Assembly (NCBI GenBank): GCA_032718475.1
Contig: JAUCBJ010007289.1
Span: forward strand, 1-64,000
DNA length: 64,000 nucleotides
Source of the DNA: Nemertoderma westbladi
Taxonomy: Eukaryota > Animalia > Xenacoelomorpha
Direction of reading: 5' to 3'
The translations under genes were made by a program, and so were the position numbers. This document shows, one piece after another, positions 2,576-41,569 of the stretch. Positions within the stretch are counted from its first letter, which is position 1, and each line of letters begins with the position of its first letter. Under the pieces are notes generated by a model. The model searched no databases. It saw nothing but the letters and a program-made list of their open reading frames with translations, and was not told the origin of the DNA.

Positions 2576-5476
2576 CGACTCCCGACTTATTAAAATAATA
2601 CCCAAAAGATAGTAAATGGCCGGGCTACCGATGTCTTGATTTTAAGTTTTTTTTAATTTGAGGGGCGAATTGTTGCATATTTGCTGACCTGTAAATTTTA
2701 ACCATTGAGATACAAATATCCGTTTTCATTTTACCATAGAAAACAGTTTTTTTTGTATGATGTAAAGCAGTATTTATGGTTTCCTTAATGGTTTTAACCG
2801 ACATCCGTGGTTTTTGGGATAAATTTTCGGCATTTATTTATATTATGTGGTCTTGCAAAAAACCACAACAGTTAATTTTATGAATTTTTTTTAGTACAAT
2901 ATACCAACATTTACAAAAACAACCATTAACATTAACCCCCGCCACCTCTATCATGGTGCCAGGAATCTCCAGTCAACCTCCATGTCACCTCCCTCCAACC
3001 ACTGCGCCGTCTAATGTTATCACCTCCACTACTCCACTCCAACCAGAAGATCCCGTAGTAACGGATCCTTTGGAAAGCGCCGTTGCATCTCATGATCGCT
3101 CTCCCGCTCCCCTACTGTCCCGGAACTCATCTGTCGTCCACCGCCCATCGTCCATAGAGCCGACACAACTGAGAATGGACCAAAAAATATATTTTATAAG
3201 TCGGCCTACTGTATGCCAAATTGTAGGCCTACTCTCAAAGGGTACAATAATTGCAAAAAAAACACATCTGGGCCTACATTATTTACCTACAAAATTCTAC
3301 GCCGACGATATTATTTTTGAAAAGACCTCAATAATAATACCTTATCAAGACCACTACACAAACTCAGGGGATACTGTAGACCGAGACCAAATGCAACACA
3401 ACAAGTTACCGTACTAATTAATAGCCTTTTCTCTCTTCCTAAAGTTGTTTCAGTATTGACTTTTCCTATGATGATTAAAGCATCAATATTCGAGTCGAGT
3501 CAAAGGGGGGGGGGGGGGGGGGGGGGGGGTCGGGCTGCTCGCAAGTCTCATCCTGGCAAATTAGGATCTCGTCTCAATGTTAAGTTATCAATTTAGCGAA
3601 AGGCGAAGTTACATTGAACGTTATTCTAACCAAAACAATAAATATAAATCAGTATAACTGGTTACAGATATATTTTTCAGAGTTATCAATCAGCTGTTAT
3701 TTGCGTCGATTTGTAGAGTCTAGGATTTGCAGTATAGGGTCACCATTATTCCTGTCCACTACGCTAAACACAACTTACAATTTCAAGTAGCCTATACCGG
3801 TACGTCGTTGGAGTAACCGTTTAGTTTCGTGTGTCGCTGTAACGAATCAAGGAAAGGAAAGAAATGTACTATCCGCAATAATACTGTACACTGCAGTATA
3901 TGGGAGGTATTATTGTTCAAGGCGTGACAACCCCTACAGTTTACTGGATGGTGAAGTAAGGCCACATGCAGTTAGACCAAACGTGGACTTACCGTTAACG
4001 CACACAATAACACAACGCACGAAATACACAGACCCTACAATGTATTTAAGATAATAATGACTACACTGTAGCTATGATAAAGATTAAGGTAAAAATCTAA
4101 ATGGCCCACTTTGTGGGTAGGCCCTACCGGTATTGAATATTCCCACAAACTTACCTGCAAACTCAGCTGTAAGTACCATCAGTAAAATGACAAAGAAGTT
4201 TAACTTTACCATAATTAGTGAGAAAATAGTTCCTTTGTTGCTGAAAATACTTGTTATTAAAAAAAACTATTATAAATGCATGAAAATATATCACGTATTT
4301 ATTTCCAAATTGAGTTAAAATACGTCCAAATGAACCACATACATTACTTGGAGGCCTATATATAGTACAGTACTGTACTAGAAAAGTAGACAGACATTGT
4401 GATCATTAAATGGATACCAACATCTTGCATTAAAAGTATGTCACTATATTGTACAAATAGAGAGATTAAAAAAATAATGATGATGACACATTGCACAACG
4501 AGAGAGATGACTTAAGGTTGATACTGTAACATCTTGCACTGCTTACAGTAAGTAGTATTTCCGATTGTACAACGAGAGAGATGAGATGACTAAAACGATG
4601 ATAATGTTAACATGCTTGCACTGCCTATTTCCCAATGAGTTAAGGATAAATACAGTAAGTATTCCAGGTCAACATTTTTCTTTATACTTTCATCCACTTA
4701 AATCATAGCACTTGTCACCTAACACATATAGGCCATCATTATTACTGCACCTAAACATGACCATCTCTCGCTGAGGAACATGTCATGCGTGTAGACTTTA
4801 AGCAAAGTATACAACCAGTTGGCTCAAGTCAACTGCACTCTCCAACAAGGCTAACCGAATGCTCCTCTTCCTATAGATGCAACACGAAGGTAGGGGTGGG
4901 CGCTATACTCCTATCCCAAGTTTGCTCGCAGTTATTCAACCTAACAGTGAATGAAACAATATGAAGCTAAGAGCAAGGATGAAAGATACCAGTGGACCCT
5001 GGCGGTTCTCAAACTTACAACTAGAAAGCCAACAAGCTGGCTAGAAGGAGCCCGGGGGAAAAATCCTAGCCAATACTATTACAAAGAACTATGTCAGTCA
5101 GCAGTAAGTAAACTAAACTTGTCTAAACTGCAAGGCGTGAGGCTAGCTGACTTTGTGGCTCGTCCCACATAATAAAAAATGCAACTTAGCTACCACTAAC
5201 AAAAATTGAAGTAAATAATTTCATTATCAAGCACGTTTACAAGATATAAGATACGATTACCGAATATTTATAAAAAATGGCCATGAAGCACAACCAGATA
5301 AATAACAACGAATAGAGCCAAATAACAAATTTAGTTTCCTTCTATAGGTATTACCCCGTCGTCAAGCGGAATATCTCTTCCCAGTGAATCCTATGTGAAT
5401 ATGTAATATAGGTATTCATGCTAAGTTAGGCAGTAGGCCAGAGCGGGCTCTTTAAATACATGCAACTACTGTATTA

Positions 5477-6181: not shown

Positions 6182-8168
6182 CTACTACTACGATCGGCAT
6201 GCTGCATTGCAGCTGCATTTTTAAGAATGCTGTGCCGGCTTGTCAACAAAATTGCACCGCCACAACTCCCTATCACCCATGACATTTGCTAGATCATCCG
6301 CATCTTTAAGGCCAGTGTCCTTTAAGATGCGTCTCAAGAAAGTCATGGGCTGTCCACCATGCTTATTCACTCCATGAGGCTGCCAAAGTACAAGATTATG
6401 CACTGGCTGGTCCTCACGGCGAAAGCAATGTCCTGCAAAGCGGAGGCGATTTTGTTCTAGTGTCAAGCTTGGGGGAACCAATGAGACACCTCCAATGTTA
6501 TATAGTGTCTGGTTGGAGATGTGTGCATTGTACTTGACACAATGAACCCGGCGTAGCATTCTTGTGAATGTGCCATCCAGAGATTTGGTGTCCTCAGCAG
6601 TTAGAGCCCAGCATGGACTCCCGTAGAGGAGTACTGGAACTACTGCTGCTCTAAATAATCGGACCTTAAGTTTCCGATTAATTCTCGGTGACTTCCAAAT
6701 CCTGGAAAGCCTATTCAAGGCTGCCCATGCCTTTCCCTTACGTATTCGAAGGTCCTCACCTGACTTCCGGATCCATGATCCCAGGTAACAGAAGTCGTCC
6801 ACATGCTCAAGCATACCATCCTTTGAGCTTATGCTCATCCGATCAGAGACTTGCTGAGGACTTTCAAAGTTAACTGTCAGAATTTTGGTCTTTCTGGAGT
6901 TAATAAAAAGACCAACACTAGAAGCAGCATGCTCCAACGAGCCGAGGAGCCGTTGGGCTCCCTCTAATGATTCTGAGAGTACTCCTAAGTCATCAGCAAA
7001 GTCTAGATCAGTTAGGTACTTGGCACGATTTCCTCGACTTCTGGAGCCAGTAGGTGGAGTTATCATCACCCCATCATCATTATGATGATCTAAGGACATG
7101 CGTAGAACATAGTCAACCACAATAATGAACAAGAATGGTGCAAGTGTGTCTCCTTGGAGGACGCCCCATAACACTTCAAATGGTTCTGTGTCACCGTCAA
7201 CAGTAGATACAAATGTTGTCGAACCATCGTATACTGATCTGATTGCTACAATAATTTCATCAGGAATCCCATATAATGAAAGTATGCTGAACATACGTGA
7301 GCGAGAGACTGAATCAAAGGCCTTGAAGAAGTCAACAAAGATAACAGCCAGATGCCTGTCTTTCTTTTTTGACAATTCTTCAATTATCCTTCTAAGTGCC
7401 AAAATGGGCTCCATGGTCCCACGACCTTTACGGAACCCATTCTGATTTCCACGGAGCAGTCTCTCAATGGGATCCCTGATGCGATTTAATAGAATCCTAT
7501 TGTATAGCTTTGCAGCAATCGAGATCAATGAGATTCCCCGAAAAGAACCATAGAGTGTTAGGTTGCCCTTCTTGGGAACTGGCACCAACTTATTTGTTTT
7601 CATTTCTTGTGGGACTCTTGTTGTTCGGTACATGTCTACTATGATGGGATAGATGAGCTTTAAACACTCAGGTATTTTAAAGACCTCAGGGGGAACACCA
7701 TCTACTCCACTGGCACGATTGGTCTTAATGCTCTTTGCAGCAGCCTCCACTTCTGCAAAGGAGATATCGCCAATGGGAATATCTGGGAGTACAGACTCAG
7801 ACACTTTTACTTCTATAAAGTTATCAGGCAATACCCTGTCATTATTGAGGAGCTTTTCAAAGTGGGCTTTCCAACCATTGAGGCGATCGGCTGGTGATTC
7901 AGCCTTAACCTTGGTGGTTGGTTGGCTTTTCCGCCCAGTAAGCAGATTGATCGATTTCCATGCCTGGGATGATTGCCTGCTGTCGTCAGCATCATTGATG
8001 GCATCAACCTGTTGGTTTATTAGCTCCTGTAGATTAACAGAATACTGCCTGTTCAGGGACCTAGATGCAGCCTTAACTGCATTCTTGGCCGCTGTAGTCT
8101 GTTTGAGTCGGGACTCTTTCTGCGCCTTATGAAGGTCATTTCGGCACTTAGTAGTGAGTAGTAGTAGT
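6182..8168 (-). mobile_element. 5'-truncated RTE-clade non-LTR retrotransposon
   Basis: RT ORF, short 3' UTR with hairpin gctgca-a-tgcagc, (GTA)n tail, and TSD gagtgagta (6173-6181 / 8169-8177). Confidence 0.9.
6221..7831 (-). CDS. RTE reverse transcriptase domain (frame appears open upstream to the truncation point near 8150; endonuclease missing)
   Basis: Motifs PVPKKG..FRGISL, NQNGFRKGR, FVDFFKAFDSV, GVLQGDTLAPFLF, LDFADD, YLGS, RLRFAGHCFR. Confidence 0.9.
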   Translation of the reverse strand: MPDNFIEVKVSESVLPDIPIGDISFAEVEAAAKSIKTNRASGVDGVPPEVFKIPECLKLIYPIIVDMYRTTRVPQEMKTNKLVPVPKKGNLTLYGSFRGISLISIAAKLYNRILLNRIRDPIERLLRGNQNGFRKGRGTMEPILALRRIIEELSKKKDRHLAVIFVDFFKAFDSVSRSRMFSILSLYGIPDEIIVAIRSVYDGSTTFVSTVDGDTEPFEVLWGVLQGDTLAPFLFIIVVDYVLRMSLDHHNDDGVMITPPTGSRSRGNRAKYLTDLDFADDLGVLSESLEGAQRLLGSLEHAASSVGLFINSRKTKILTVNFESPQQVSDRMSISSKDGMLEHVDDFCYLGSWIRKSGEDLRIRKGKAWAALNRLSRIWKSPRINRKLKVRLFRAAVVPVLLYGSPCWALTAEDTKSLDGTFTRMLRRVHCVKYNAHISNQTLYNIGGVSLVPPSLTLEQNRLRFAGHCFRREDQPVHNLVLWQPHGVNKHGGQPMTFLRRILKDTGLKDADDLANVMGDRELWRCNFVDKPAQHS

Positions 8169-8451
8169 GAGTGAGTAACCTTATTGTAGATATACCCTTA
8201 GGAAGCACTGGGAGAGCAATCAGCTTATGGCGTAATACATTAGAAACCAACAGCTTATGTGTGAGTAAACATTGCCTTTCCTTATAGCCTAAGCCTACTA
8301 GTAAAACTTGGCAACCAACACGTTTTACTATGACTGTGTATAACGTATTACAGTACACCATATTTCATCATGAACACCAGCTGTTATTTTACCATTGCTT
8401 TTAATTTCGCGACAAAATAATGTCAAAAAACTAAATATATCGAATACCACA

Positions 8452-9696
8452 TGTAAAAGCTTTTGTGGGATAACTGATACGTTTGCCTATGCTGGCCAGT
8501 TCCCCCCCAGGCGCTGGAATACTCTAAAAGGGTTTTCTAACTGTAGATATATTCCCCTCGCCCGCAAGGTACCTTTACAGGTGTTTTAACGGACATAAAA
8601 GTAATTCTGCTATATACGTGTTTTAGCGGACATGGTAAGACAAAAAACTTGTAATGCACCAACCACCTTTCACAGCTTAGCCGTGATGATTCATATTACG
8701 ACATCTAGCAGCTGGTTGCTGACATGGAAACAGCCATTGGCCGCGTGGTTCTTTGTTTGGCTTGGGCCAATCAGGGCGGTTTTTCCTGTCGACGTGTAGC
8801 TTTCCTGCCGATCATAAGGAGAGTGTTCAGTCTTACTGTTTTAGAGTTGTTACTTTGTTGTTATTGCTGTCTAAGCCAGAAACACCGGCATTTTTGGATA
8901 GATACTGCTGTACCGTAAACTGCTTGAATTATCGAAAGTATAAACTGTTACCTAATTGATCAATCTTAATTAACATACTCACTTGATTTAATTGCATTAA
9001 TCATATTGTTTGTACTGTTATTTTACCGTCAGTTATTAATTGTAAATATTTGTTGATGGAAATATTGCTATTTGGATAATACGGATAAATCACCCAATTC
9101 CCAATTTTCTTGATAACACTACAGGTTAGAGAGACCGGCTATATATAACAATTGCGATTTATATTAATGTGGTGTGTATTGAATCCAATGTTATTTAGCA
9201 GACCCTACGTGAGTCAATTACTGCTCTCTTTATGTGTGATCAAATGTACTGACTGTCGGCAGAATAGTGTGTATGATTGTGATTGGTAACAAAGTATTTC
9301 CTAAAGAATACGTTTTATACTTTAATCAGCAGCAGTATCGTTGCGTTTTAGTATAAGTCTTAGTTCTGTTTAAATAGATAAAGCGCCACGTCCTAAAGGA
9401 ACTGTTAATATTTCCCGAAAGCCAATAATACCTGTCAGAGATTAATTATTAACGATCTATCGAATAATACATTAGGTATACACTGCAACCTTACACTGTA
9501 ATAATACAATTCAAGCATCCGAATTCAGTCTCCCGGGTGTAGATCCATCGGGTGAATGATCGCGCATGGGCTGACTTCGGCTAATGTTTTGCGTATTAGC
9601 ATAAATTATTGTCGTATGCTAAAGTGGTTTTAATTAACTAAAAGACATATAAATTTTGGCAGGTTAAACTGCTAAAGGTCTTCGAAAGCGCGAACA
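8452..9696 (+). mobile_element. Solo LTR (diverged subfamily B of the BEL/Pao element)
   Basis: Ends TGTAAAAGCTTTT...AAAGCGCGAACA, 5-bp TSD CCACA (8447-8451 / 9697-9701), and blocks shared with 15746-16986. Confidence 0.93.
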
Positions 9697-12835: not shown

Positions 12836-13964
12836 CCCAAGCCACACCAGGCTCAACCAAGCAATGTTGGGCAATTTGATTCATTATGACTTGTGAGTAA
12901 AATGGTTTATAAAATTAACAGTCGGACAGCCAGACAGCGCATTTAATTCGGAAAATGCGCGAAGCTGTTTTTTTGTCATTTTACCGATAGCGGATAGGCC
13001 TACTTCTTTAATTTTAATTTCGCCATTGTTCACTTTTCTAATATAAATTATACTTCCATGTACCGGTACCGGAAATTTAATGCGAGCGAAGAGTAGCGAG
13101 TCTTATTTATATTATGTGGTCTTTAAAAAAACTACAACAGTTAATTTTATGATTTTTTTTTAGTACATTATACCAACATTTACAAAAACAACCATTAACA
13201 TTAACATTAACCCCCGCCACCTCTATAATGGTGCCAGGAATCTCCAGTCAACCTCCATGTCACCTGCCTCCAACTACTGCGCCGTCTAATGTTATCACCC
13301 CCACTACTCCACTCCGACTCCAACCCTTAAAGGCAGTGTTTTCGGATCCTTTGGAGAACGCCGTTGCATCTCATGATCGCTCCCCCGCTCCACTACTGTC
13401 CCGGACCTCATCTGTCGTCCACCGCCCATCGTCCATAGAGCCGACACAACTGAGAAAGGACCAAAAAATATAATTTTTTAAGTCGGCTAACTGTATACAG
13501 TAACTATAACACATCTACATTATTTACCTACAAAATTATACGCCAACGATATTATTTTTGAAAAGAAAAGACCTCAATAATAATACTGTATCAAGACCAC
13601 TACACAAACTCAGGGGATACTGCGTAGACCGAGACCAAATGTAACACATCAAGTTACCGTACAAATAGCCCTTTCTCTCTACCTAAAGTTGTTTCAGTAC
13701 TGACTTTTCCTATGATGATGAAAGCATCAATATTCGAGACTGCTCGCAAGTCCCTTCCTGGCGAATTAGGATCTCGTCTCAATGTTAAGTTATCAATTTA
13801 GCGAAAGGCGAAGTTACATTGAACGTTATTCTAACCAAAACAATAAATAAAAATCAGTAGAACTGGTCACATATATATTTTTCAGAGTTATCAATCAGCT
13901 GTTATTTGCGTCGATTTGTCGATTTGTATAGTCCAGGAATTGCTGTATATATAGGGTTATCATT

Positions 13965-14635
13965 GGTGTTATGGCTGAATGAGTGGTTTCATATTATTAT
14001 AATTTTTTGTTGAGCACAGCTTTTGCAAAGTCGGCTAAGACGTCCAGGTGGGATCGAACTGGTGACCTCCGGGTTGGAAGTCTGACGCTCTAACCATTCA
14101 GTTAGCGGCTCAGGTGAACTATAGACCTGGAAATACTGTCTGATACCTTGTATGTCCGCAATTTACCTCCTCATGGCCTCCCGGCTGTCAATAGCCTACC
14201 ATCATATGCTGCCACTGTGCTCAACTACAGTACTTGGCCGTCTTTAAACAGTCGCTGCAATGAAAGGGTACTGTATATTAACCATGAACCATCACGGCCA
14301 CAATGATTAATTAAACACTCTAGCTACTAATTTAGGTAGGACAGTTACACCCAGAGAGAATTGCGACCGGTATATTTATATATATTTTTCGGTTCAAGAC
14401 GGCCAAGTATGATAGGGTTGAGCACAGTGGCAGCATATGATGGTATTGACAGTTGGGAGGCCATGAGGAGGTAAATTGCGGACATACAACGTATCAGGTA
14501 GTATTTCCAGGTCTATCTTTTACCTGAGCCGCTGGCTGAAGGGTTAGAGCGTCAGACTTCCAACTCGGAGTTCTCCAGTTCGATCCCACCTGGACGTCTT
14601 TGCCGACTTTGCAAAAGCTGTGCCCAATAAAAAGT
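13965..14635. mobile_element. Palindromic insertion with a tRNA-derived Pol III cassette in each arm
   Basis: 15-bp TSD tatagggttatcatt (13950-13964 / 14636-14650), inverted arms ~13998-14244 / ~14396-14639, A box tggctgaagggt and B box gttcgatcc. Empty site at about 3733-3747. Confidence 0.85.
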
Positions 14636-15745
14636 TATAGGGTTATCATTACTCCTGTCCACTACGCTCAACACAACTTATTACAATTTCAAGTAGCCCA
14701 TACCGGTACTTCGTTGGAGTAACCGTTTAGTTTCGTGTGTCTCTGACACAAACTATTCATTGAAAGGAAAAAAATGTACTATCCGCAATAATACTGTACA
14801 CTACTGTACAGTATATGGGAGGTATTTGTTCAAGGCGTGATAACCCCTACAGTACTGGATGGTTATAAGTATGGCCACATGCAGTTCATATAGGTTGTTA
14901 GACCAAACGTGGACTTACCGTTAACGCACACAATAACACAACGCACGAAATACACAGACCCTACAATGTATTTAAGATAATAATGACTACACTGTAGCTA
15001 TGATAAAGATTAAGGTAAAAATCTAAATGGCCCACTTTGTGGGTGGGCCCTACCGGTATTGAACATTCCGGCAAACTTACCTGCAAACTCAGCTGTAAGT
15101 ACCATCAGTAAAATGACAAAGAAGTTTAACTTTACCATAATTAGTGAGAAAATAGTTCCTTTGGTGCTGAAAATACTTGTTATTAAAAAAAAACTATTAT
15201 AAATGCTTGAAATTAATTTACGTACAGTATTTAGTTCGAAATTGAGTTAAAATACGTCCAATGAACCACATACATTACGGGGAGGCCTATATATAGTACA
15301 GTACTGTACTAGAAAAGTAGACAGACATTGTGATCATTAAATGGATACCAAAATCTTGCATTAAATCTTGCATTAAATCTTAAATCTTGCATATGTCACT
15401 ATATTGTACAATTAGAGAGATGAAAAAATAATGATGATGACATATTGCACAACGAGAGAGATGACTAAAAGGATGATACTGTAACATGTTTACTTTCATA
15501 CTAACATACTTTCATCCACTTAAATCATAGCACCTGTCACCTAACACACATCGATAGGCCATCATTATTACTGCACCTAAACATGACCATCTCTCTCTAA
15601 GGAACGTGGCAAGCGTGTAGACTTTAAGCAAAGTAAACAACCAGTTGACTCAAGCCAGAGGCTAACCGAATGCTCCTCTTCATATAGATGCAACCCGAAG
15701 GGAAGGTAGGGGTGGGCGCTATACTCATATCCCAAGTTTGCTCGC

Positions 15746-16986
15746 TGTAAAAGCTTTTGCGTCATTAACCGGTTATTTTCCCTTAAAGTACTCTGTAGTT
15801 GGTTTGCCAGGCATAAAAAGGCCGTGTCCTTGCTGTACTGGTGTTTTAGAGGACATAAAAGTCATTTCTTCTTATTTGAACTGTATTTGTACTTTAGAGG
15901 ACATAATCTGCAATTTCATGACGTAAAAAGCTCGATACTCTTGAAAACAGTGTCGCTACCATGACGACGGCTAACGGCTGATATTGCCACGTTGCAGCTT
16001 TCTGTATCTGCCAATAGGATTTGAGTTGGCTTTGATTTTGACCTATCACAGAGCTACTGAACTGAATTTTCCTATCTCACTGCTCTTTCTCTGTGTTGGA
16101 CGGGAGCTTCGTAGAATAAGGGTAGCTGGTATTCTTATAGTTATTCTTATCAGTGATCAGTGTTGTTGGTGATTCTAAGCCAGGAAGAACGGCTTTAGAG
16201 TATTTTGTGCTTTTATGCTTTAGCCTTACACTAGTAGGCTTAATTATAAGGACATATATCCTTTATCTGCATAACATCCATAAATGCGGCATACCATACC
16301 AAATCATTTATACCTTAACTTTACTGATTTTGCTGTCGGTTATTCATTATATTTGTTGATGAATTATTATATTGGAATAACGAGAAATAAACCCCGAAAA
16401 CCCAATATTCTTGATATACCGAAGGTAAGAGAGAAGGGTTACATATAACGATTGTGACTTATGTTAAAGTGGTTTGAAGTGAATCTAATGTTATTTGATA
16501 TACCCTACATGAGCCAGTCTGTGTTCCTTTTATATGTGACTAAAATCAGTGAAGATCGGCAGATTAGTGTGCAGTATTGTGCAGCATTGTGTATGAGTGA
16601 AACTGATAAAGAAGCATTTCCTAAAGAATGCGACATATATGTGAATTATAACTGAGCCATATCGTTGTGAGTAGTTTAAGTCATAACTCTGTTTATATAG
16701 ATAGAGCGCCACGTCCTAAAGGAACCATTAATATTCCCCGAAGGTGAATAATATTGTCAGAGATTATATAATACTGTCAGTCGAATAATACATTAGGCTT
16801 ACATAGCAATACGATTAAGCCGTCGAAGTCAATCTCCCGGGTATATCCAACGGGTGAATGATCGCGCACAGATTGGTTTCAACTAGTGTAGTGAATCAAA
16901 TACTTGTCAGAGGCTAAAGCGATTTATTATCTAGAAGACATCCTAATTTGGCGGGTTAAACTGCCAAAGGTCTGAAAGCGCGAACA
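15746..16986 (+). repeat. 5' LTR
   Basis: Direct repeat of 25819-27059. I noticed only three differences (two 1-nt indels, one substitution). Confidence 0.96.
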
Positions 16987-16998
16987 ATAAAGGATATA
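16987..16998 (+). promoter_or_regulatory. Candidate self-priming primer-binding site
   Basis: ataaaggatata abuts the LTR end and is the exact reverse complement of tatatcctttat at 16255-16266. No TGG-type PBS is present. Confidence 0.6.
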
Positions 16999-17049
16999 GC
17001 TTCTTTATTGCAGTAAGCAATAAAGTTGAAAGTACCGGTCAACCGGTAA

Positions 17050-17930
17050 ACCTGAACGGTACATCTGTAGGTCAGTAGGCCCAACTGCCAGAACCGGTAC
17101 TGCCGTAGGCCCGTAGGTCCAACTGCCAGAACCGGTACTTCTGTAGGTCCGTAGGCCTAACTGTCCTAACCGGTACTTCCGTATAAGTACATTAGTATTA
17201 TTCGACTTGATTGTTGTAAACCGGTAGGCTGTTTAAGAGATTAGGGACTGTACACCCCTTGTTTCTTTTGGAGCTTACTTATTTCTGTCAGTTTTATTTG
17301 TTAGTAGGCCAGTATTGAACAGAAGGCGTGTAAACCTGATCAGATTGTACAGACAATTTGTAGGCTGAGCTGTTGTCTGATTGCTGTGAGGTCTGAACGG
17401 ATTACAGTGTGTGTAGAGCACCTGTCCGATTAAGTACGGTTAGGAAGTAGGGGCAGCAAATGCTGTAAGGTAAACCCCCAATTAAAGAATAAGTCGTACT
17501 ACTGGGTTAGAACGCATACTGCCTAATCATTTCGGAGTCTGCATGTCCTGTAGTTTATTTAGGCTTGAGAGTAGTCTGCCATCGTTTAGTCTGTACTTTG
17601 TTTGTGTAAGTCCGTACAGGAAGCGTATAATATTTATTTAGATAATTTGTAGGCTGGATAGTTGTCTGGCTGTTATTAGGTCTGAACGGATTGTAGTGTG
17701 TGTAGAGCCTCTGTCCGATTAAGTACGGTTAGGAAGTAGGGGCAGCAAATGCTGTAAGGTAAACCCCCAATTAAAGAATAAGTCGTACTACTGGGTTAGA
17801 ACGCATGCTGCCTAATCATTTCGGAGTCTGCATATACCGTAGTTTGTTTAGGCTTGATAGTAGTCTGTCGGTATTTGGTCTGCATTTTGTTTGAGTAGTT
17901 TGTACGCGTAGCGTAATATTTATTATTCAG
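17050..17930 (+). repeat. Tandem repeats in the retrotransposon leader: about 38-bp units (17050-17185) and an about 290-bp dimer (17350-17930)
   Basis: ccggtac..gtagg..gtagg..caactgccagaa occurs 3-4 times. aatttgtaggctg...ggcttga.agtagtctg occurs twice. Confidence 0.85.
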
Positions 17931-19241
17931 AGTTTATGCGATTATTCGCAACATTCATATTCCCCAAGTTTGTTCCTACAGTAATTGTGTTTGTTATACA
18001 TACCGTTATAGTTAAATTAACCCCGGTACTACACGGGCTGCTTGGCGTAGGTAAAGACTGGTGATTTTGTGCACCGGTCACTCCAGCAGATGCCGTGGTT
18101 CTTTTAGCTGTTCAAGTATAGTTAACTACTGATTATCTGTTGTACAAGTACTCGTACCTAATTTAGGGTTTAGTGTACAGTGCTTTCCGAAAGTAATTAT
18201 TGTAGGCATTATATTTGTGTTGTAAAGTGGTTGATAGGCACCTTCGATTAGCTCTATTAGCTTCTAGGTAGGAACACTCCGTGATACATAACGTAGAACC
18301 TATAGCGATACGGCTATAGGTCGTCAGGCGGTGGTATTTTCCTATCTAGACAACGCAGTGTATTTACTACTACTTATTATTTTCAAATACCGTAGTACCC
18401 TGTTCGTTGTAATAACCAGATTCTAACCCTTTGTTAGGCTGGTTTGTAGACTTCTTGTAAAATTACCCTAAAAATTCGTATTTTGTGTTTTTTTGTAAAT
18501 TTTTGTGTTTATTTAGAGATTGTAATCTCAATCCGAATTGTACGTAATTTGTAGTATTAAGTAACTTAGGTAAATTAGAATTATTTGTTTTAGTGTCCTA
18601 TAAGTAACACTTCACTGAAAGCGTACCGCTTTGTGTAGTGATTACTCCCCAGAAATAATAACATTTATTTCAAATATTGACAAAGCCCATTAAAACGGGT
18701 ATATATATATTATAAATCAAATCTAACGATTTATAAATAGTAGGCCTACCATATAACCATTAGGTCTCAATATCAGTTGGACTACTGTTCAAATAACGGT
18801 AATAAAGTAAGTAAAGTAACAAAGTAACCCTAAAGTTCAGAAATTCAATTATTTAAAATAATTGATATACCGGTATTTACGATAGGCCTATTATCTTTAT
18901 TTCTGTAAATTTAGGCTGAAATTATACCGGTACTTGTAATTAATTCTAGTCCAGAATTATATATACTACAAATTGTAAGCTGTATACCGGTATTCCCGAT
19001 AGGCCTATTATATATTTATATATATTTGTGCTAAAATTATACCGGTATTCTGAGATAAACCTAGTCTGTAATAATACTTATATATACTATAAGCATACCG
19101 GTATTCTAATATATTATATATATATCACGCTACACTGAGTAGCTGTATCGGTAATTAATTACTAGGCTAGCAGTTAATACTGAATTACTAGACTTGCTTA
19201 GACTGTAATATAGCAGTAGGCATTCAACTGTACAAACAAAA

Positions 19242-20132
19242 ATGTCTGACACAAAACGGGCACTGTCAGATAGTCTTTTGGAAGGTGTTAGAATCAGTCT
19301 TAGACTTGGACAGGGTCTTGAAAGGAAGATGGCAGAGGCAATGGCAACAGCAGAAGCGAAAAGAAAGGCGGCAGAGACAATGGCAACAGCAGAAGCGGAA
19401 AGAAAGGCGGCAGAGATAATGGCAACAGCAGAAGCGGAAAGAAAGGCGGCAGAGGCAATGGCAACAGTAGAAGCGGAAAGAAAGATAGAGACACCTGTAC
19501 TCCCAGAACCTGCCTATAAATTCCCTTTGTACAGTACTAAACTACCTGTGCCCAGTAGGACTGTTCCCGAGTCCGAACCCATCCTGGACGCCGAGCGAGA
19601 TATTAAGAATTTATCGCCCGTCGTCTCTCGCTCGCCCGCTACAACGTTGGCGACTCCCGCTTCGGCGGTTGAGTGGGTAGCTGAGGGACGACGGGAGATG
19701 GGTCTCCTGCTCGAGCAGCTGAGGGAACACTGTTTGTGCTCCTCTCAGCAGGTCCGGGAAATGGAAGAGACTGTTCAGCAGCTCAAGGGAACAGTAAGGG
19801 AAAGTAGGTTAGAGTTGCAAAAGGTGCAGCAAAGTATCGCGTTAGAATGCGATAAATTAGTGAACATACAAAGGGGTATAACACCACCCCCTGTAACAAT
19901 GTGTCAACCCGATAGGTCTGAAGTATTTCATGCGCAAGGTGTGGAGCCTACACGCATCTATACTGCTAGTGAAGTAGAAACTCCTATAGTAAACCCTATT
20001 CAGGGTAATTATAAACCTGTTGATAATAATATTCCATATAGACCTGATCATAATCCGAGAAATTTATATACCGATAATTCTATATTCAATAATACGATGG
20101 CTCAAGAAAGTTTTTTCGCGTCAAATGGCTAG
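19242..20132 (+). CDS. Gag N-terminal part (coiled coil, MATAEAERKAAE repeats)
   Basis: 296-aa ORF after the long leader, overlapping the next ORF, which is in the +1 frame. Confidence 0.7.
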   Translation: MSDTKRALSDSLLEGVRISLRLGQGLERKMAEAMATAEAKRKAAETMATAEAERKAAEIMATAEAERKAAEAMATVEAERKIETPVLPEPAYKFPLYSTKLPVPSRTVPESEPILDAERDIKNLSPVVSRSPATTLATPASAVEWVAEGRREMGLLLEQLREHCLCSSQQVREMEETVQQLKGTVRESRLELQKVQQSIALECDKLVNIQRGITPPPVTMCQPDRSEVFHAQGVEPTRIYTASEVETPIVNPIQGNYKPVDNNIPYRPDHNPRNLYTDNSIFNNTMAQESFFASNG

Positions 20133-22746
20133 AACCGAAGCCCGGCAAGCGGTAAAGGTGGGAGAGATCGTCAAGTTCAATGGAGATGAGATGAAATGGT
20201 TACCTTTTAATGAATATTATAAAGATAACATACAGAACTCTGTACTATCTAACGGAGAGAAACTTAGATTCCTCATCGAATGTTTGGAAGGACCTCCCAA
20301 GTCAATGGCGTTAAAATTTATTGGACATCCAGATGGATTAAGACAAGTTTGGGATACACTAAACATCAGGTATGGTAATAGGACTAACATAGCTAGGTAT
20401 TTATATGCGAAAATAATGGCGCCCCGAAAGTTTCTTAGCAGCGGGATTATAGAGTTTTCCGATGAGATTCAGGAGATCTGTAGACAACTAGATTGGTTAG
20501 GTAAGTCTCATGAATACCAGAATTCTATGGTTGTAGGAGCCTTAGCATCTACTTTGCCCAAGGGTGGAGTAGGTACACGCTGGGACAAGAAGGTGTTATA
20601 TATGATGGAACAACAACAACGAGACCCTACCATGGCTGATCTCATGTCATTCCTGGATAGCGAGGTGAAATTACAGCTCATAAAGCAGTCCAGAGAGAAG
20701 ACAGCGGAAAGTAAGGTAAGTGAGAAACCCGTTTCTAGGAGAAGGGTAACACCAGTATGTTATACCGACGACGGTGAAAGCCAAACTTCTCAAGGAGAGG
20801 ACAGCGGGAAAGACACTGACAGATCTTATGTCAATAAAATGCCTAAAGATCAGGTAAATAAATCCAAGTCTCGACCCAATGACAGAAGAGAACCGGTACG
20901 AAAAACCCCTCCTACGTCTCCTAAAAGAATTCAGGTGAGAAAGCCCGAGGAAAGAACAAGTGTGCACCACACAGCACATGTTAAAGTAAGTAACATCAAG
21001 CCCAAATGTGTGCTGTGCGACGGGCCCCACCGTTTAAATGCGTGTGATAAATTCCTGAGGAAATCACTAAAGGATAGACGTGAAGTCATGTGGGATAAGC
21101 GGTTGTGTTATAATTGCCTCAGACGAGGACACCAACGGCGAACCTGTAACTCCGACGCAAGGTGTGCGAAGTGCGGCGCAAAACATCATATCTTGTTGCA
21201 CACGGAATTCGAACGAAACAGCCCGAGTCAGGTAAGTGAGTCCGAACTACATGACCAATTCAGTGATGTGAATGACACTGATCAATCTGAGATGGAAGGA
21301 TTCTATACGGACGAGTTCTCCGACCAAAACGAATCCTGTTACCTAATAAACACCACCGCAGTGTATCGAGCACTCGTGTATGAGAAAGACACAGACAGCG
21401 ACCTTACCTTAACTACTTCCGATCAACAACCATCTTGGAAAGCGCCAACTTCCAATATAGGAATCCGAGAATTTCCTGTAGTCCAGTTACGGGTCCACGG
21501 ACCTCAGAAGAGCTATATAGTGAACGCCCTCCTGGACTCCGGTAGCACAGGAACATTCATCGATAAAGAACTAGCCGAAGTCATCTTTGCTGGACAACCC
21601 AAGTTCCGAACCAAGCTAAACATGTCAGGGATCATGCAGGTTTGGAATTCTACTGTAGCTGCCGACTATTATATAGGTGAGTTGTCCACTCCACAGGATA
21701 AACTAGGAGAATACAGTATAAGGTCAGTAAAAATGGTGGCTATAAAGAACTTCGCTACCACCCAAGTGGAACCTTATAATTGGGACGAAGATGATCATGT
21801 CCAACAACTTAACATCCCTAGATTCGACACCGATTATCCTGGAGTACAAATATTAATCGGTCAAAACGCGCATGAGGCGCTGGAGACATTGGAGAAACGA
21901 CCTGCTCAACCGCAACCACTTCAGACCTATGCGGTAAGAACTAGAGTAGGTTGGTACCTTACTGGACCTTCCCGAAGAACGCTCAGAGAAAGACTGCTTC
22001 AAGATCGCGTCCGCCAGGTGAGTGAATGGGAAGATGATACTAGTGAGGGAGACGACCCAACTGAGGGAACACCACACTCCTCAGATAATGACAATCTTAG
22101 CTCCAATGTAGATCAATGGAGATATTGCCCCAAGAAGTTTAATCCAACGGACATCGCTTCCAGAGGAGCAACTCCTCAAGAACTAACAGATACTATAGAT
22201 CGGTTAGGTGAACCCGACTTCCTGAGTAAGGAGAATGAATGGCCTCCCCATCTTACTCCGACTGAGATTAGACCAGCCAAGGGAGCGGAGAAAGTCGAAC
22301 CTGAAACCCGGACGGGTGGATCGGAGTTATTTGAACCCGGGATAGATCTGTCGGTATTACATGTTGCCAGGGACGACGCCGTGGATCTGGGCCTCCCCTC
22401 CGCGAGTGGATCCTTCATGAAGATCAGAGAGAGCGATTGGAGCTCTGGAACATCAGACGTCTCGCAGGGACTCTCACCTCTCCTGCAGAGAGCGACGGAC
22501 CACTATAGCTCCTGGAATCGGCTTTGTGACGCCGTCATATACTTTGAGCGATGTTTCTATCGTCACTATTCCAGGACGAAGAGGAAACCTGGAATTGTAT
22601 TCAGGATGCAGCGACTCAATCACCCAGTCGGTCGTTTGTGTTTATCGGAAGGGAATGGAGGACTCTCCGGAAACTGTGGAAGGCAAGATTCTCTTCCCAC
22701 GACCACCTCCCTAATCCTTCAAACATCTAGGGACTCCATAACGTAA
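20020..22746 (+). CDS. BEL/Pao Gag core, three zinc knuckles and aspartic protease, fused to an RNase H tail remnant
   Basis: KFNGDEMKWLPF..EKLRFLIECLEG (DUF1759-like); CVLCDGPH..C, CYNCLRRGH..C, CAKCGAKHHILLH; ALLDSGSTGTFI; TRVGWYLTGP; QWRYCPKKFNPTDIASRG. No YxDD RT motif or integrase. An in-frame ATG lies at 20125. Confidence 0.9.
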   Translation: MIIIFHIDLIIIREIYIPIILYSIIRWLKKVFSRQMARTEARQAVKVGEIVKFNGDEMKWLPFNEYYKDNIQNSVLSNGEKLRFLIECLEGPPKSMALKFIGHPDGLRQVWDTLNIRYGNRTNIARYLYAKIMAPRKFLSSGIIEFSDEIQEICRQLDWLGKSHEYQNSMVVGALASTLPKGGVGTRWDKKVLYMMEQQQRDPTMADLMSFLDSEVKLQLIKQSREKTAESKVSEKPVSRRRVTPVCYTDDGESQTSQGEDSGKDTDRSYVNKMPKDQVNKSKSRPNDRREPVRKTPPTSPKRIQVRKPEERTSVHHTAHVKVSNIKPKCVLCDGPHRLNACDKFLRKSLKDRREVMWDKRLCYNCLRRGHQRRTCNSDARCAKCGAKHHILLHTEFERNSPSQVSESELHDQFSDVNDTDQSEMEGFYTDEFSDQNESCYLINTTAVYRALVYEKDTDSDLTLTTSDQQPSWKAPTSNIGIREFPVVQLRVHGPQKSYIVNALLDSGSTGTFIDKELAEVIFAGQPKFRTKLNMSGIMQVWNSTVAADYYIGELSTPQDKLGEYSIRSVKMVAIKNFATTQVEPYNWDEDDHVQQLNIPRFDTDYPGVQILIGQNAHEALETLEKRPAQPQPLQTYAVRTRVGWYLTGPSRRTLRERLLQDRVRQVSEWEDDTSEGDDPTEGTPHSSDNDNLSSNVDQWRYCPKKFNPTDIASRGATPQELTDTIDRLGEPDFLSKENEWPPHLTPTEIRPAKGAEKVEPETRTGGSELFEPGIDLSVLHVARDDAVDLGLPSASGSFMKIRESDWSSGTSDVSQGLSPLLQRATDHYSSWNRLCDAVIYFERCFYRHYSRTKRKPGIVFRMQRLNHPVGRLCLSEGNGGLSGNCGRQDSLPTTTSLILQTSRDSIT

Positions 22747-25700
22747 CAACATATGGAGTGGGTGTGTGACTCTATTATTTTATATTATTTTATTATTTTT
22801 ATATTTATGTATGTATTACTATGTAATTCTATTATAATCGTTTTCTTTAATTTTATTCAGTAGAATGTTATTTTAGCGATTATTTAGTAGATTAGTGCAA
22901 TATATATTCGCGTTTATTACTTAATTACGTATATATTATATTTAATGCGACGGCAAGAAATAATTCTTTTCCTTCTTCCTTACTGTCCGTATTACATTAC
23001 AAATACGTAACTACAGTAAGATGAAATGTCCGTACTTATTAAAGTACAATAAAGCCACTACTATATTCAAGTATTATTGGTAGGCAGAGTATTAGGAATG
23101 CAAAGTTCAGATCCTCGTGTCTCGGCTAAACCAAGCTCTGGGTAGACCTTGGAAACGACTTGCCTCTTCACACTGACATTGCTTCGTGCGATATTGCTCT
23201 CATACCGTATATTAAATAATACATATAGTAGCGTGATGTCCCTTTAACAGTAGCGTATAACGCAAAATAAATCTGTTAAACCCTTTGACCATCTGTAATT
23301 CTAGTCGATTAAGATATCGTGGCACCCACCGATATACTTGAAAGACAAATTATAGAATCAGTGGTTAACGTCCCCAGACAAGTTCTGGAATAAATCGGTG
23401 CCCATCTCAAATATTAATTATTTAATATTTGCAAATCTAATAAGTCAAAATCTGTAAAATTCAGATCCTTCAACGATTCTAGTCAATTAAGATATCGTAG
23501 CATTTACCGATATTCTTAAAAAGACAATTTTCATAGAATTAAGGATCTTGTGTCCCCAGACATGTTCTAGAATCAAAATATGTCTATTTAATTATCAAAT
23601 AATAAAATTTCAGGGAATAAATTTAAATTCATGTCTTTTAATGAATTTAATAAATTGCCATTTTACGCAATTTATAACATTCCCAAAATTCCATTAATTA
23701 ATAGATCAAGGGAGCGGAGATTTATATTATTATGCGTATGCGTGTACGAAAGTCTCCCAAACATAGTCAATAGCCGATAAAATTCATAAAGTCATATATA
23801 AAACAGGACATTGACTATTAAAGAATTACTATTAAATAACATCCCAGATCTGTATGCATTGGAATTACCCTAATTCTACCGCTAGCTTTACATAATGTCA
23901 CCATAGTAACAACCACGCTAGAATTAGAATTGAGTTAAAAGAACAATAGAAAGCTTGTCCCATTGAATAGCATAGGGAATAAATAGTGCACTGATAGTAT
24001 CAAAGGATACATAATAATACAGTGACATTCTGGAAGGCATTGACTAACGGACAAGTGACCCGAGTGTGTGTAATTTGTGACAAGTTGTGTGTGTGGTATT
24101 TGTGAGTTTATAGGCGAATGTTACTACTAAGGTGTGTTTACAGTAGCGAGTCGCAATTGTGAAAGTAACCCTAACTCTCCAGTAAGAACCTGAGGTGTAT
24201 CTAAGCCTTTGGGACGGACAGTCGAGTGACTTGTGCCGGTTGTCGTTGTCGTTGTGCGGCTACGTCGTTGGCGAAAGTACAGCGGCGACGACACATCGGT
24301 GCTGAGGATCTCGCACTGTCTGGGGGCTGATTGGGGTAGGCAGCGACGCTCGCTAGCCTAAATATAAACTCATTATAATATTAATAAAATCATATATAGC
24401 AGATATGACGGAGTTGATAGAAGATGGTCTTGGTCAGGGAGCGATATACTCTACTTTTACAAGCGTTTGTTGATAGCTTAATACGCGGCGACGTTAGTCC
24501 AACTGCTGCGGAGGACGATGGTCGTTATATCGAACCGCCAATGTCCCAAGAGCAGCTCTCGCGAGAGTTGGACTATAGAAAATTCGCTGCTCGATATATG
24601 CAGCGTAATGGTACGTATATGGGCTTCTTAACTACTGGTCATCCTATCGATTTACATAATACGGACTATGTCGACTATATATCCTGCCCAGCGGAGTCGG
24701 AACCATAAACTGAAATTCGAATGTGAAAATTCTATTCGAAATCGACTCGAAAGAAAAGACACTAAAGAAACAAATAAACGCGGTAACTCCAACGTATATT
24801 TGGAATTCTTGATAGAAGCATTGTAACAACAAATAAATATCACCCGCGTTTCCCCTACCAGACGTGCGTCTTTGGTATTATTACGATAAATGCCCTAGAC
24901 CCAGCCAATAAACGGAAAGACATAAACATCCACGGAAACGTTGTGTTAAACACAGTTGTGCTCGTTATATTTACTGGAGTTTCGAGCGAAACTTGTTTGA
25001 CGTATCACCTATGCTCACTCGGTTCGAACGATCCTGGAGTAAACCTACGATCAGAGTCCCGGAATACTCGGTCAAACCTCCTCATTCCTTAGTTGGACCT
25101 CAGACCTGCGATCCTGGTGGTGTCGCGGATCCTCGCGGACTGTATTCACTGTTCAAAGATCTAGTGCTACCCTAACAATTAATCGGTAACACTCCGACAG
25201 TGATTTCTAGCTAGCTGCCCATCTACCTAGCCGGATTGGGACGCGGACATTTAATATCGCCGTTTAACCCTTACCATCGTCCCGTCCCGGCTTAACACGA
25301 TATAACCTGTCACCAAAGTGGCGGAGAACGTTGTACCAAACGAGTTAAACGCTATTCTACAAAGATCAGAAAGGAAACCTGCGTTTGTTCAGATAAACGT
25401 AAGTTGTAACAGCAAGTCCAAGCGATAAACGAATTGTCTTTATCTCAGTTCGATTGTAAAATCCAGAATCTCTAAGAAGATATCGAACTTAGGCAACCCC
25501 ATTCTCTGCGAGAGTTTTTGGATGAACGTATCCAGCTACGAGCGGAGGAAAATCAGCTCGAGGAGAAGCATATCGAAACGGCGGATACCCCGACCATAAT
25601 GCTACACCTTCTGATGCAATCATATTGCACCCTTCACCCAGGATTTATAGCCCTCCTAGTAAAGTGGCTCGCCCCAAAGAGAAAAGGACTCTTGCTAGCC

Positions 25701-25810
25701 TCAAAAACTGCGTAAACGCCGTCTGCGTAAGAAAGACTAACTGTTTAGAGTATCTTTATATTTTAGAAACTGTGATTTGTTATATTTTATAGACTTAAAT
25801 CCCATTTTCT

Positions 25811-25818
25811 GGGAGCGG
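25811..25818 (+). promoter_or_regulatory. Short polypurine tract
   Basis: gggagcgg lies immediately before the 3' LTR. Confidence 0.6.
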
Positions 25819-27059
25819 TGTAAAAGCTTTTGCGTCATTAACCGGTTATTTTCCCTTAAAGTACTCTGTAGTTGGTTTGCCAGGCATAAAAAGGCCGTGT
25901 CCTTGCTGTACTGGTGTTTTAGAGGACATAAAAGTCATTTCTTCTGTATTTGAACTGTATTTGTACTTTAGAGGACATAATCTGCAATTTCATGACGTAA
26001 AAAGCTCGATACTCTTGAAAACAGTGTCGCTACCATGACGACGGCTAACGGCTGATATTGCCACGTTGCAGCTTTCTGTATCTGCCAATAGGATTTGAGT
26101 TGGCTTTGATTTTGACCTATCACAGAGCTACTGAACTGAATTTTCCTATCTCACTGCTCTTTCTCTGTGTTGGACGGGAGCTTCGTAGAATAAGGGTAGC
26201 TGGTATTCTTATAGTTATTCTTATCAGTGATCAGTGTTGTTGGTGATTCTAAGCCAGGAAGAACGGCTTTAGAGTATTTTGTGCTTTTATGCTTTAGCCT
26301 TACACTAGTAGGCTTAATTATAAGGACATATATCCTTTATCTGCATAACATCCATAAATGCGGCATACCATACCAAATCATTTATACCTTAACTTTACTG
26401 ATTTTGCTGTCGGTTATTCATTATATTTGTTGATGAATTATTATATTGGAATAACGAGAAATAACCCCGAAAACCCAATATTCTTGATATACCGAAGGTA
26501 AGAGAGAAGGGTTACATATAACGATTGTGACTTATGTTAAAGTGGTTTGAAGTGAATCTAATGTTATTTGATATACCCTACATGAGCCAGTCTGTGTTCC
26601 TTTTATATGTGACTAAAATCAGTGAAGATCGGCAGATTAGTGTGCAGTATTGTGCAGCATTGTGTATGAGTGAAACTGATAAAGAAGCATTTCCTAAAGA
26701 ATGCGACATATATGTGAATTATAACTGAGCCATATCGTTGTGAGTAGTTTAAGTCATAACTCTGTTTATATAGATAGAGCGCCACGTCCTAAAGGAACCG
26801 TTAATATTCCCCGAAGGTGAATAATATTGTCAGAGATTATATAATACTGTCAGTCGAATAATACATTAGGCTTACATAGCAATACGATTAAGCCGTCGAA
26901 GTCAATCTCCCGGGTATATCCAACGGGTGAATGATCGCGCACAGATTGGTTTCAACTAGTGTAGTGAATCAAATACTTGTCAGAGGCTAAAGCGATTTAT
27001 TATCTAGAAGACATCCTAATTTGGCGGGTTAAACTGCCAAAGGTCTGAAAGCGCGAACA
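25819..27059 (+). repeat. 3' LTR
   Basis: Direct repeat of 15746-16986, followed by TSD CTCGC. Confidence 0.96.
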
Positions 27060-29174
27060 CTCGCAGTTATTCAACCTAACAGTGTATGAAACAAGATGAA
27101 GCTAAGAGCAAGGATGAAATATACCAGTGGACCCTGGCGGTTCTCAAACTTACAACAAATAGATTTTAAGCCTGGGGGGCGCCCAAACTAAACCCACACT
27201 TATTCTATAGACACAAGTTGTTAGAATGAAGGATGTCACAGACTAGGCGGTCCCATACTAGAGGGGGAGAGGGGAGGGTGGGTGGGTATTGGTACATGAC
27301 CCTTCCCCATTTGAAAAAAATATTAAGAACGAACTGTTTAATTTAATAATATATATATTTTGATTACAAATCAAGTTCAAATCAAGTACAAATCAATCAA
27401 AGATAGAATTATAAAACAATAAAAATAACACATTAATCCTAAAATTCCTAAACACCTAATAAACATACCGGCACCTAAAATTGTCGTTTGCTTCCTCATA
27501 AATTCGCCAAATCCTATTATTGATCCTCCACTGACCTCCCTTAATATGTCATAATCGCATGTTGGCTATCACTAGAGACCCCCATGGTTCTCGCATGGAT
27601 TTATAGGTTTTATCTTTTGGTTAGGATTAGTTTGTCGAGCCCAAACCATAATTAATTACTGTAAAATTGACATAACCATAAGCTTTAAGTCATGAGCCTC
27701 TAATCTAAGAAACTTTGTGGAATTCAGGACCCTTGCTGTTGGCCATCGTCAGCGACAAAGGACATGACTGGCATTGCAATTGCAAACAGTTATCAGCTGT
27801 TATGTTACTAGGCAACAAATCAAACATTATTCAGTACACATTTAAATAGGTAACACCTGGTTCATGCCTGGTTGCAGAATCAGACTTTGTATTTTGTACC
27901 GGTAGTTCTGTAGTATATTGTATGTACTGAATGAAGTCTGCAAGTATGATAGAGGCCTACTGATACTGCAGCGTACGTCGCGGATAAGGGTCAACTGACC
28001 CTCTGACAGTGCAATGCTCCAGTGTCAGTCAATAGGCCTAATTATTACCTGATTACCGTTGGTTGGTAATTGTTTCATTCGAATAGATAGCAGAGCAGGT
28101 AGACCACGCCATCCCAAGCCACACCAGGCTCAACCAAGCAATGTTGGGCAATTTGATCCATTATGACTTGTGTGTAAAATGCCAAATGGTTTATAAAATT
28201 AACAGTCGGACAGCCAGACAGCGCAGTTAATTCGGAAAATGCGCGAAGCTGTTTTTTTTTGTCATTTTACCGATAGCCGATAGGCCTACTTCTTTAATTT
28301 AATTTCGCCCTTGTTCACTTTTCTAATATAAATTATACTACCATGTACCGGTGCCGGAAATTAAATGCGAGCGAAGAGTAGCGAAGGCGACATTTTGTAA
28401 AATTTTTGTGCATTTTTTAAACAAAATATACTTTTTTTAAACAACCGGTAATGTTTTGCTTTTTATCTCAACCAGTCTTTTTCGGATAGTCAGTGTTTTG
28501 TTGTCACTACACAACTAAAACACCAGTATACAACTACACTCTTCAAGGGGGGGTAGGGAAGGTAGGTAGGTAAACGCTACGCTTACACACGCCTTCACAC
28601 CTACACCTATTTATCGGCTCGGCATGCTAGTAATAAAGAAGCAGGTTACAGAGATGGGTTGAGTGGAACAAAACAATAATCGAGAGTTAGAAATATTGTA
28701 GAAAATCAAATTTAATTGAGAATCCACAGCCAGATGTATAGGCCTATCGGCTTGCGCCCTACGGTACATGCATGTGTGTGTAGGCGTAACGTTTAATCCC
28801 TCTCTTCAAGTTGTGTGCCGGTAGTTACCGAGTTAGTGAATTTGCAAGTAGGTCTTTAACAGAAACCATTGTACAAGAGTTGTCCTTGACCTTGGCCTGC
28901 AGCCTATAGCTTTCTGGATCAGAAATACAGTACATCAAGGCAGATGCCAGATTTTATGATGAAATATTGATTTAACTACTGTATTGAAGTTGTGTTGTAT
29001 AAAGTAACGTAGCCTGACATTTTCGGCACTGTTCTCTCTGATTCTAATACCAGTGCAGTATAGCTTACTGAAACTTTATGTAATTAATTATTTATATTCG
29101 TATACCGGTATGTGTTGGTGTAGATATTCATATTTGGTGTTTATAAAACAATAAATATAATGTAATTTGTGGCA

Positions 29175-34378: not shown

Positions 34379-35038
34379 TTATCTCGAGCAACATGATGGT
34401 TTCATTTGATTTATAGAAGACTTTGTGTGGAGCTGTAAATTTTCCATTGGTTTTTCTTTATGGACGGGGAGGGGCGCGGCAATGAAACAGTCCGTGGCGA
34501 TTTTCTCAAACATATGATAAACATTATAGCCGGTTTTACTGCTGGTCTCATAGACCTCGGCCCTTATCGTATCAGCGTAATCGCTCACATTATGGAAGTC
34601 AACGTGTCGCATGCGACTACCTCGCTCCTTATTCCTATCGTCCTGAACCAAATCGTATTTAGTCCCGCACAAATAGATCAAACATTCTGGTTCGTTGTCG
34701 CGAAGTTCTCCGACCCAGAATTTAACTCGCTCGAAACTTGTCGCGTCAGTAATATCGTAACAGATAACGGCGGCCTTCGCGCCTCGGTAGTAAATCCGAC
34801 TCATCGCCTCGTAACGTTCGCTTCCCGCAGTGTCCCAGACACCCAGAGTGACCAGACCCCCGTCCGCAACACCCAGTTTCTTGGATCCGAACGCCGCACC
34901 GATGGTGTTCTGGTACGGCTGATTAATGTTGAACCGATCATTGAGGAATCTGAACATGAGACTAGTCTTTCCTCCGTATTCCTTGCCGAGAAGAACGACT
35001 TTAACGTCAACTGTGTTTGATCCCGTGTATCGATTCAT
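34379..35038 (-). CDS. RAB24: Rab24 small GTPase, single ORF
   Basis: [47 protein letters not shown] (diagnostic Ser for Gln), GTKYD in place of NKxD, ETSSKTG, C-terminal CCSR. Likely ATG at 35038 (219 aa). Confidence 0.95.
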
Positions 35039-41031: not shown

Positions 41032-41569
41032 AAAGGAGGTGGCTGATGAAGATATCAATCTCCTTGCACCACACCCCATTGGTGGTTCCAACAAGGGGGT
41101 GAAGGAGAACCTTCTATCTTCGCACACCGCGCTGTAGTGCACCTTTGTGGCTCGGACTCTCTGTTGGAGGACAGAGTACAAGGGCCGGTGAGCATATGAG
41201 GGGGCGTCGAGCGTTAACGATCGCAATATCGAAAGACGCCACCCTCTATTTATTTTATTTCGTTTCACGTTTAGATATATTTTTTAATGTGTATAAACTA
41301 TTTACAGTAGTTCATTTTTCTCAAACTCATATTTCCGACATTCGTTTAATTTTAAGGTAGGGATGCTCGACATCTTAAGGGTTAAGGAGGGGGGAGGGGG
41401 GGCTGTGTGGTGGTTTTCGCCGCAGGTGGTCGGCGCAGATTCCCCAGGGTCGGTCTCTCGTCAGAAAAATAATTTATAATTACCCTCAGTGCCAGCGTTA
41501 CCTGGCAATACCATATCATTCACCTGAATCAGCATTACCTAACCTACCTTCAGAACCAATCCAACCATA

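Follow-up and report, generated by a model that had tools for sequence, protein, structure and literature searches.

A BEL/Pao retrotransposon of Nemertoderma westbladi whose primer-binding position is complementary to its own LTR, a probable case of self-priming

The window analysed here is a 64,000-nt stretch of Nemertoderma westbladi DNA (contig JAUCBJ010007289.1, positions 1 to 64,000, forward strand). It contains one long terminal repeat (LTR) element with both LTRs, and two solo LTRs:

15741–15745, + strand: left target-site duplication, CTCGC (a single CTCGC stands at the empty paralogous site, 4925–4929)
15746–27059, + strand: BEL/Pao LTR element, with boundaries taken from the LTR pair and the target duplication
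15746–16986, + strand: 5′ LTR (A), 1241 bp, TG...CA, from LTR comparison
16425–16430, + strand: splice-donor-like GTAAGA, aligned in A, B and C
19242–20132, + strand: ORF1, with coiled-coil-like repeats and no Pfam match, overlapping the start of ORF2
19993–22746, + strand: ORF2, with BEL/Pao Gag (DUF1759), three Cys-His knuckles and an aspartic protease motif, without reverse transcriptase (RT)
22096–22270, + strand: short C-terminal remnant of RNase H within ORF2, about 55 residues
25811–25818, + strand: short G-rich polypurine tract, resembling the tracts of relatives
25819–27059, + strand: 3′ LTR, 1241 bp, with its own copy of the primer site at 26329–26340
27060–27064, + strand: right target-site duplication, CTCGC
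8452–9696, + strand: solo LTR B, with its own 5-bp duplication; the site aligned with the primer site, at about 8939–8951, ends in AC
46455–47615, − strand: solo LTR C, with its own 5-bp duplication; the aligned site, 47267–47255, ends in AC

The ends of the element were fixed in four ways, by the CTCGC duplication, the 3′ LTR, solo LTRs B and C and, in addition, the empty paralogous site, which confirms the LTR end at 16986 proposed in an earlier, sequence-only reading of this DNA. The TG...CA LTR ends and the target duplication are those of BEL/Pao elements. The insertion lies in a duplicated repeat (13103–15748 and 27060–27156, with an empty copy at 2834–5021), and the two 1241-bp LTRs differ at three positions; the element is a recently inserted copy. 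Conservation among A, B and C is about 70% in the 3′ half of the LTR (16346–16986) and about 30–60% in the 5′ half.

ORF2 matches DUF1759 with an E value of 1.8e-13, and its 26 homologues are all BEL/Pao polyproteins, 24 of them with PF05380, PF03564 and integrase-region domains and the remaining two with PF05380 and PF03564 only. The sequence-only reading had called the element BEL/Pao, which holds for Gag and protease, but the copy is not intact: ORF2 passes from the protease straight to the RNase H tail, RT and most of RNase H are gone, and no RT or integrase matches were found inside the element. The PR–RT–RH–IN order of BEL/Pao elements is accordingly absent from this copy, and in place of the Ty3/gypsy chromovirus Pol of the Tf1/sushi type it carries BEL/Pao Gag and protease. 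The window copy is a young non-autonomous BEL/Pao deletion derivative; lacking RT, it would need a helper, and because it is a deletion derivative it cannot be placed by RT. The ATG of ORF2 overlaps the end of ORF1 (20125–20132), and in this copy Gag is apparently divided between two frames.

Elsewhere in the window, a second BEL/Pao remnant (integrase, DUF5641) lies at 41379–42537, with no LTR pair found, and a non-LTR-type reverse transcriptase ORF (RVT_1, DUF6451; 6221–8197, − strand) adjoins solo LTR B. Of three apparently intron-less host genes, that at 74–1531 encodes ECSIT, that at 29166–31943 a coiled-coil protein of 925 aa and that at 34379–35194 a GTPase of the Rab family. ARAGORN also made two weak tRNA calls at 54630–55017, within an inverted-repeat region, which are probably spurious.

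The priming question turns on three short segments at the 5′ end of the element:

16245–16254, + strand: 10-mer TATAAGGACA, directly before the primer site
16255–16266, + strand: putative self-primer site TATATCCTTTAT, 12 nt, contiguous, without an intron
16987–16998, + strand: primer-binding-site (PBS) position, complement of 16255–16266, without TGG

The segment 16987–16998 matches the reverse complement of TATATCCTTTAT exactly and the pairing ends at the LTR boundary, just as the sequence-only reading had described. Within the 64,000-nt window, TATATCCTTTAT is confined to the two element LTRs. The missing TGG was likewise borne out, the nearest one downstream of the 5′ LTR being 282 nt away. 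A 12-nt match at offset 0 arose in none of 5,000 dinucleotide shuffles of the LTR, and in three of 5,000 when offsets of 0–5 were allowed, in agreement with the earlier estimate of chance; none of 386 window tiles had a self-complement longer than 10 nt. The PBS position of the window element is thus complementary to its own LTR over about the 11 nt typical of Tf1-type elements. A splice junction that would lengthen the window primer was considered and rejected, because the best spliced match is only 4 nt, against 12 nt for the contiguous one. A self-encoded tRNA-like primer, as in Cer7 of C. elegans, was also rejected, with zero Rfam or ARAGORN matches inside the element; we counted this absence of a tRNA-like RNA in favour of self-priming.

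Among the variants listed for contigs from runs X1, X3, X4 and X5, which cover the LTR and the leader, none falls in either 12-mer; none of these contigs spans the stretch, and the comparison is uninformative. Contigs of X1 and X3 include a variant of the primer site with two letters changed (subfamily D). One X1 contig parts from the reference beyond 16990, the point at which a D-type PBS would begin to differ, and the summed contig depth of bin 16213–16269 exceeds that of neighbouring bins; neither observation is counted as evidence. The conserved LTR-end pattern had no matches in viral or metagenome contigs, and a protein alignment search had none in viral contigs.

Relatives were drawn from the five homologue hits nearest to ORF2 or nearest to those hits, giving 92 loci (80 of 577 confirmed stretches and all 12 of a second set). 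A repeat pair surrounds the polyprotein in 41 of the 92, of which 39 were inspected (L054 and L077 were left out). The LTR end could be fixed in 15 loci, in which both copies run on past it, and removal of L002 as a duplicate of L003 left 14. LTR boundaries were placed manually; L026 and L091, whose boundaries are doubtful, were both retained. Contiguous and GT–AG-joined matches were scored. Loci L081–L092, eukaryotic BEL/Pao elements of which some have both LTRs, lie in bacterial genome bins, probably as host contamination.

None of the 14 relatives has TGG within the first 8 post-LTR nt, and 11 of them (L003, L016, L021, L038, L042, L060, L062, L072, L078, L085 and L088) have a self-complement of 11–15 nt that starts 0–4 nt past the LTR, with a length of exactly 11 nt in five; L026, L082 and L091 fall short, with 8, 8 and 9 nt. 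Only one of 600 internal 30-mers and none of 210 cross-family pairs reached 11 nt in controls. Self-priming, as the sequence-only reading had proposed it for the window element, is thus supported across families. The relatives have a median polyprotein identity of 42% (82 pairs), their paired letters are family-specific, and the post-LTR letters track each family's own LTR. We read the differing paired letters of diverged relatives as covariation across families.

The relatives also suggest how such a primer might be made. Ten of the 11 matches are best across a GT–AG intron of 74–451 nt, and one (L072) is contiguous. In L060, the 5′ LTR (1–214) lacks exactly the 117-nt GT–AG intron that is held in the 3′ LTR (6935–7265), which reflects either splicing followed by reverse transcription or the mixing of two forms in the assembly. 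Removal of the junction weakens most duplexes, with L003, L042, L060, L078 and L085 retaining −10 to −13 kcal/mol on one side, and in nine of the ten spliced cases an AATAAA or ATTAAA is found after the primer end. The predicted 3′ letters of the primer are AC in 9 of 11 relatives, ACT in 2 of 11 and AT in the window, and the distance from primer to LTR end is 48–278 nt in relatives as against 720 nt in the window. GGAC or GGAT precedes many relatives' primers and several PBSs contain a short palindrome; these features and the primer-end letters are possible cleavage or dimerisation signals. The LTRs of L021, L038 and L072 end in TA, not CA. A blind scan of 11 loci, in which only the LTR start was fixed, reached 11 nt in 10 of them and in 11 of 88 shuffles, which is weak support given a looser null, three re-finds of families already counted, an L087 match inside a longer LTR and a doubtful L057. 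Eight of the blind-scan matches are spliced, all of 11 nt, and five are in families new to the set.

A link between the window family and these relatives is provided by TATAAGGACA, which ends 1 nt before the splice-junction primer in L042 and L060. It occurs four times in the 709,345 bases of the 92 loci, and three of the four occurrences are at the primer-adjacent place. In solo C, TATAAG stands before the aligned site, spaced as in A, and the AC endings of the aligned B and C sites are those of most relatives' primers. That TATAAG serves as a TATA box is unlikely in L042 and L060, where a start 25–30 nt downstream would be intronic. Because TATAAGGACA is common to it and to L042 and L060, the window family seems to belong, as a member without the intron, to a wider self-priming lineage and not to be a local invention. 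The suggestion in the sequence-only reading that tRNA-independent priming arose here is therefore pitched at the wrong scale: the trait is common to a wide BEL/Pao group to which the window element is 22–28% identical in Gag–protease.

A tree of the Gag–protease–RNase H tail (38 rows, unrooted; L082, L088 and L091 were dropped as too short) places ORF2 and the 11 relatives that entered it together on one side of a 99/99 split, with ORF2 outside the relatives' own 100/99 group, on a long branch (1.42; identity at most 28%). The tree is modest evidence, because the relatives were fetched from hits on ORF2's side of an earlier tree. We give the window family no lineage name, since the tree holds no named Sinbad, Suzu or Tas reference. 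The predicted duplex energy of the window primer and PBS is −11.7 kcal/mol, within the −9.6 to −16.9 kcal/mol of relatives; this energy, the common 10-mer and the shared side of the tree were counted for self-priming.

Where the transcript starts decides the geometry of priming, and the leader holds these signals:

16150–16161, + strand: two TCAGT initiator-like motifs from a motif scan, candidate transcript start
16386–16391, + strand: AATAAA, 119 nt past the primer site, absent from solo B
16985–17025, + strand: mutually exclusive hairpins from computed pairing probabilities; 16985–17010 (8 bp) would hide half of the PBS and 17003–17025 (9 bp) frees it

The sole AATAAA is removed from the 3′ LTR by a 1-nt deletion (5′ LTR position 16389), and A5, A3, B and C have no conserved poly(A) signal in common. 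Contigs of three runs show the same 1-nt deletion. Upstream of the window primer site, at a distance of 100–240 nt, there are CCAAT and TCAGT motifs, and CCAAT boxes in B and C lie about 170–180 nt upstream of their aligned sites. The primer/PBS pair is predicted for an RNA of 16255–17050 only (mean probability 0.97–0.99); the other 11 of 12 start/end frames, with five upstream starts or a longer 3′ end, give it a probability of 0.0 at either temperature. The RNA 16255–17050 itself folds better than shuffles (z −3.7). Motifs and folding thus point opposite ways on whether the primer is the 5′ terminus of the transcript. Equilibrium folding of 800–1500 nt is unreliable and ignores nucleocapsid chaperoning.

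If the folding is followed, the RNA would start at or next to 16255, the primer would be its first 11–12 bases, as in Tf1, and TATAAGGACA would be promoter-proximal. The predicted pair requires just this start, and 11-nt pairs like that of Tf1 (PMC7175516) occur in the five relatives noted above and in 8 of 8 spliced blind-scan matches. However, even the fold from 16255 is lost once the RNA is extended to 17300, and the CCAAT and TCAGT motifs speak for a start farther upstream. Because a Tf1-like start would also demand first exons of 3–8 nt in the spliced relatives, a start near the TCAGT motifs is more likely than one at the primer, and we regard the Tf1-type arrangement as unlikely. In contrast to that of Tf1, the primer probably lies inside the leader. 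A primer made of the first RNA bases, the geometry in the sequence-only reading, is less likely than that reading's own caveat of a start about 100 nt upstream.

We consider it highly probable that the lineage is self-priming in some geometry. With more reserve, we favour a fold-back version in which minus-strand synthesis is primed by the element's own internal leader piece, with a cut predicted at the 3′ end of the duplex. Transcription would start near 16150, about 100 nt upstream of the primer site, and inside the particle the leader segment 16255–16266 would fold back to pair with the PBS. A nuclease, RNase H or another, would then cut after 16266, the 3′ end of the 12-bp duplex, and the cut leader piece would be extended into minus-strand DNA by the RT of an autonomous helper. 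Counted against this fold-back version were the loss of the pair in 11 of 12 folding frames, the 720-nt distance and the AT end, and likewise the long branch of ORF2, the three misses among 14 relatives and the lack of a shared poly(A) signal.

The pairing could instead serve structure, in leader folding, packaging or dimerisation, or be a vestige, the true primer being a piece of host RNA, for example a half-tRNA. Half-tRNA priming is known in copia lineages (PMC6317226), fungal GalEa elements have a hairpin instead of a PBS (PMC5445492), and local hairpins are predicted at 16985–17025 in the window. A common host RNA would nevertheless not explain post-LTR letters that are family-specific and follow each family's own LTR; the pairing, moreover, always ends 0–4 nt from the LTR end, and we judge this reading quite improbable. 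A primer supplied in trans by a separate short transcript of a solo or 3′ LTR, in place of fold-back within one molecule, would suit the failure of 11 of 12 frames to predict long-range fold-back and the presence of solo LTRs in the window; yet such short LTR transcripts are without support here and equilibrium folding of long RNAs is a poor guide, which makes this a slim prospect. A chance match in an A/T-rich copy with a decayed PBS, despite the low complexity of the 12-mer and a 10-nt chance match that did occur to the pyrimidine tract of L016, is hardly credible in view of the three hits in 5,000 shuffles with offsets 0–5, the mere three differences between the LTRs and the upstream 10-mer common to relatives.

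Returning to the fold-back version, its history can be sketched from the relatives, which would assemble the primer across a spliced LTR intron, the window family having a ready-made, intron-less form. The LTR intron could persist because that part of a new LTR would be copied from the 3′ LTR of the RNA, and splicing in the 3′ LTR would yield intron-less LTRs like those of the window and L072. Whether a wide aquatic-animal BEL/Pao lineage dropped tRNA priming, with the splice-assembled leader primer ancestral and the window family a deeply diverged intron-loss branch that kept TATAAGGACA, we hold to be evenly balanced.

The window element resembles Belpaoviridae (Semotivirus) in its BEL/Pao Gag (DUF1759), three Cys-His knuckles, protease, LTRs of about 1.2 kb and polypurine tract (PMC8742986), and differs in that it and 14 of 14 relatives have no TGG and that the window copy has no RT. 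The ICTV profile of the family, which terms its replication poorly understood, describes tRNA-primed replication with an 18-nt PBS for tRNA-Arg or tRNA-Gly (PMC8742986); the window element has no such PBS for the 3′ end of either tRNA. In Tf1, the first 11 transcript bases pair with the PBS and RNase H cleaves between the 11th and the 12th (PMC7175516, PMC4600332). Tf1/Tf2 (Schizosaccharomyces pombe), Tj1, Tf1/sushi and Tcn1 likewise lack a tRNA PBS and have about 11 nt complementary to their own LTR-derived RNA. These are Ty3/gypsy elements, whereas the window element is BEL/Pao, with a primer that is probably internal and 720 nt from the LTR end, and its relatives differ from the Tf1 group in a primer predicted across a splice junction. 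Self-priming is also predicted for the TAR lineage of Ty1/copia (Houba, Osr-1), with an LTR–PBS complement of at least 10 nt (PMC6317226); TAR elements are plant copia, for which the passages compared offer prediction only and report no intron, unlike the window's relatives. Fungal GalEa copia elements likewise have no PBS and carry short inverted repeats directly after the LTR, but no LTR complement was found there (PMC5445492), in contrast to the exact one in the window.

The literature comparison also took in PMC3601003, PMC8220671, PMC13524379 and PMC3286476. No report of BEL/Pao self-priming was found in a literature whose subscription journals and Repbase reports were thinly covered, and an earlier mention is possible; a word search of PMC554778 (Sinbad) and PMC3118150 (a BEL/Pao survey) returned no mention of a PBS or tRNA. 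If true, self-priming in BEL/Pao would add one more origin of the mechanism, beyond Ty3/gypsy and copia. It would also explain BEL/Pao copies in which no tRNA PBS can be found and which annotation tools that rely on a PBS may discard. Should most relatives make their primer by splicing, host RNA processing would gate reverse transcription, and intron-less families like that of the window would be the natural comparison.
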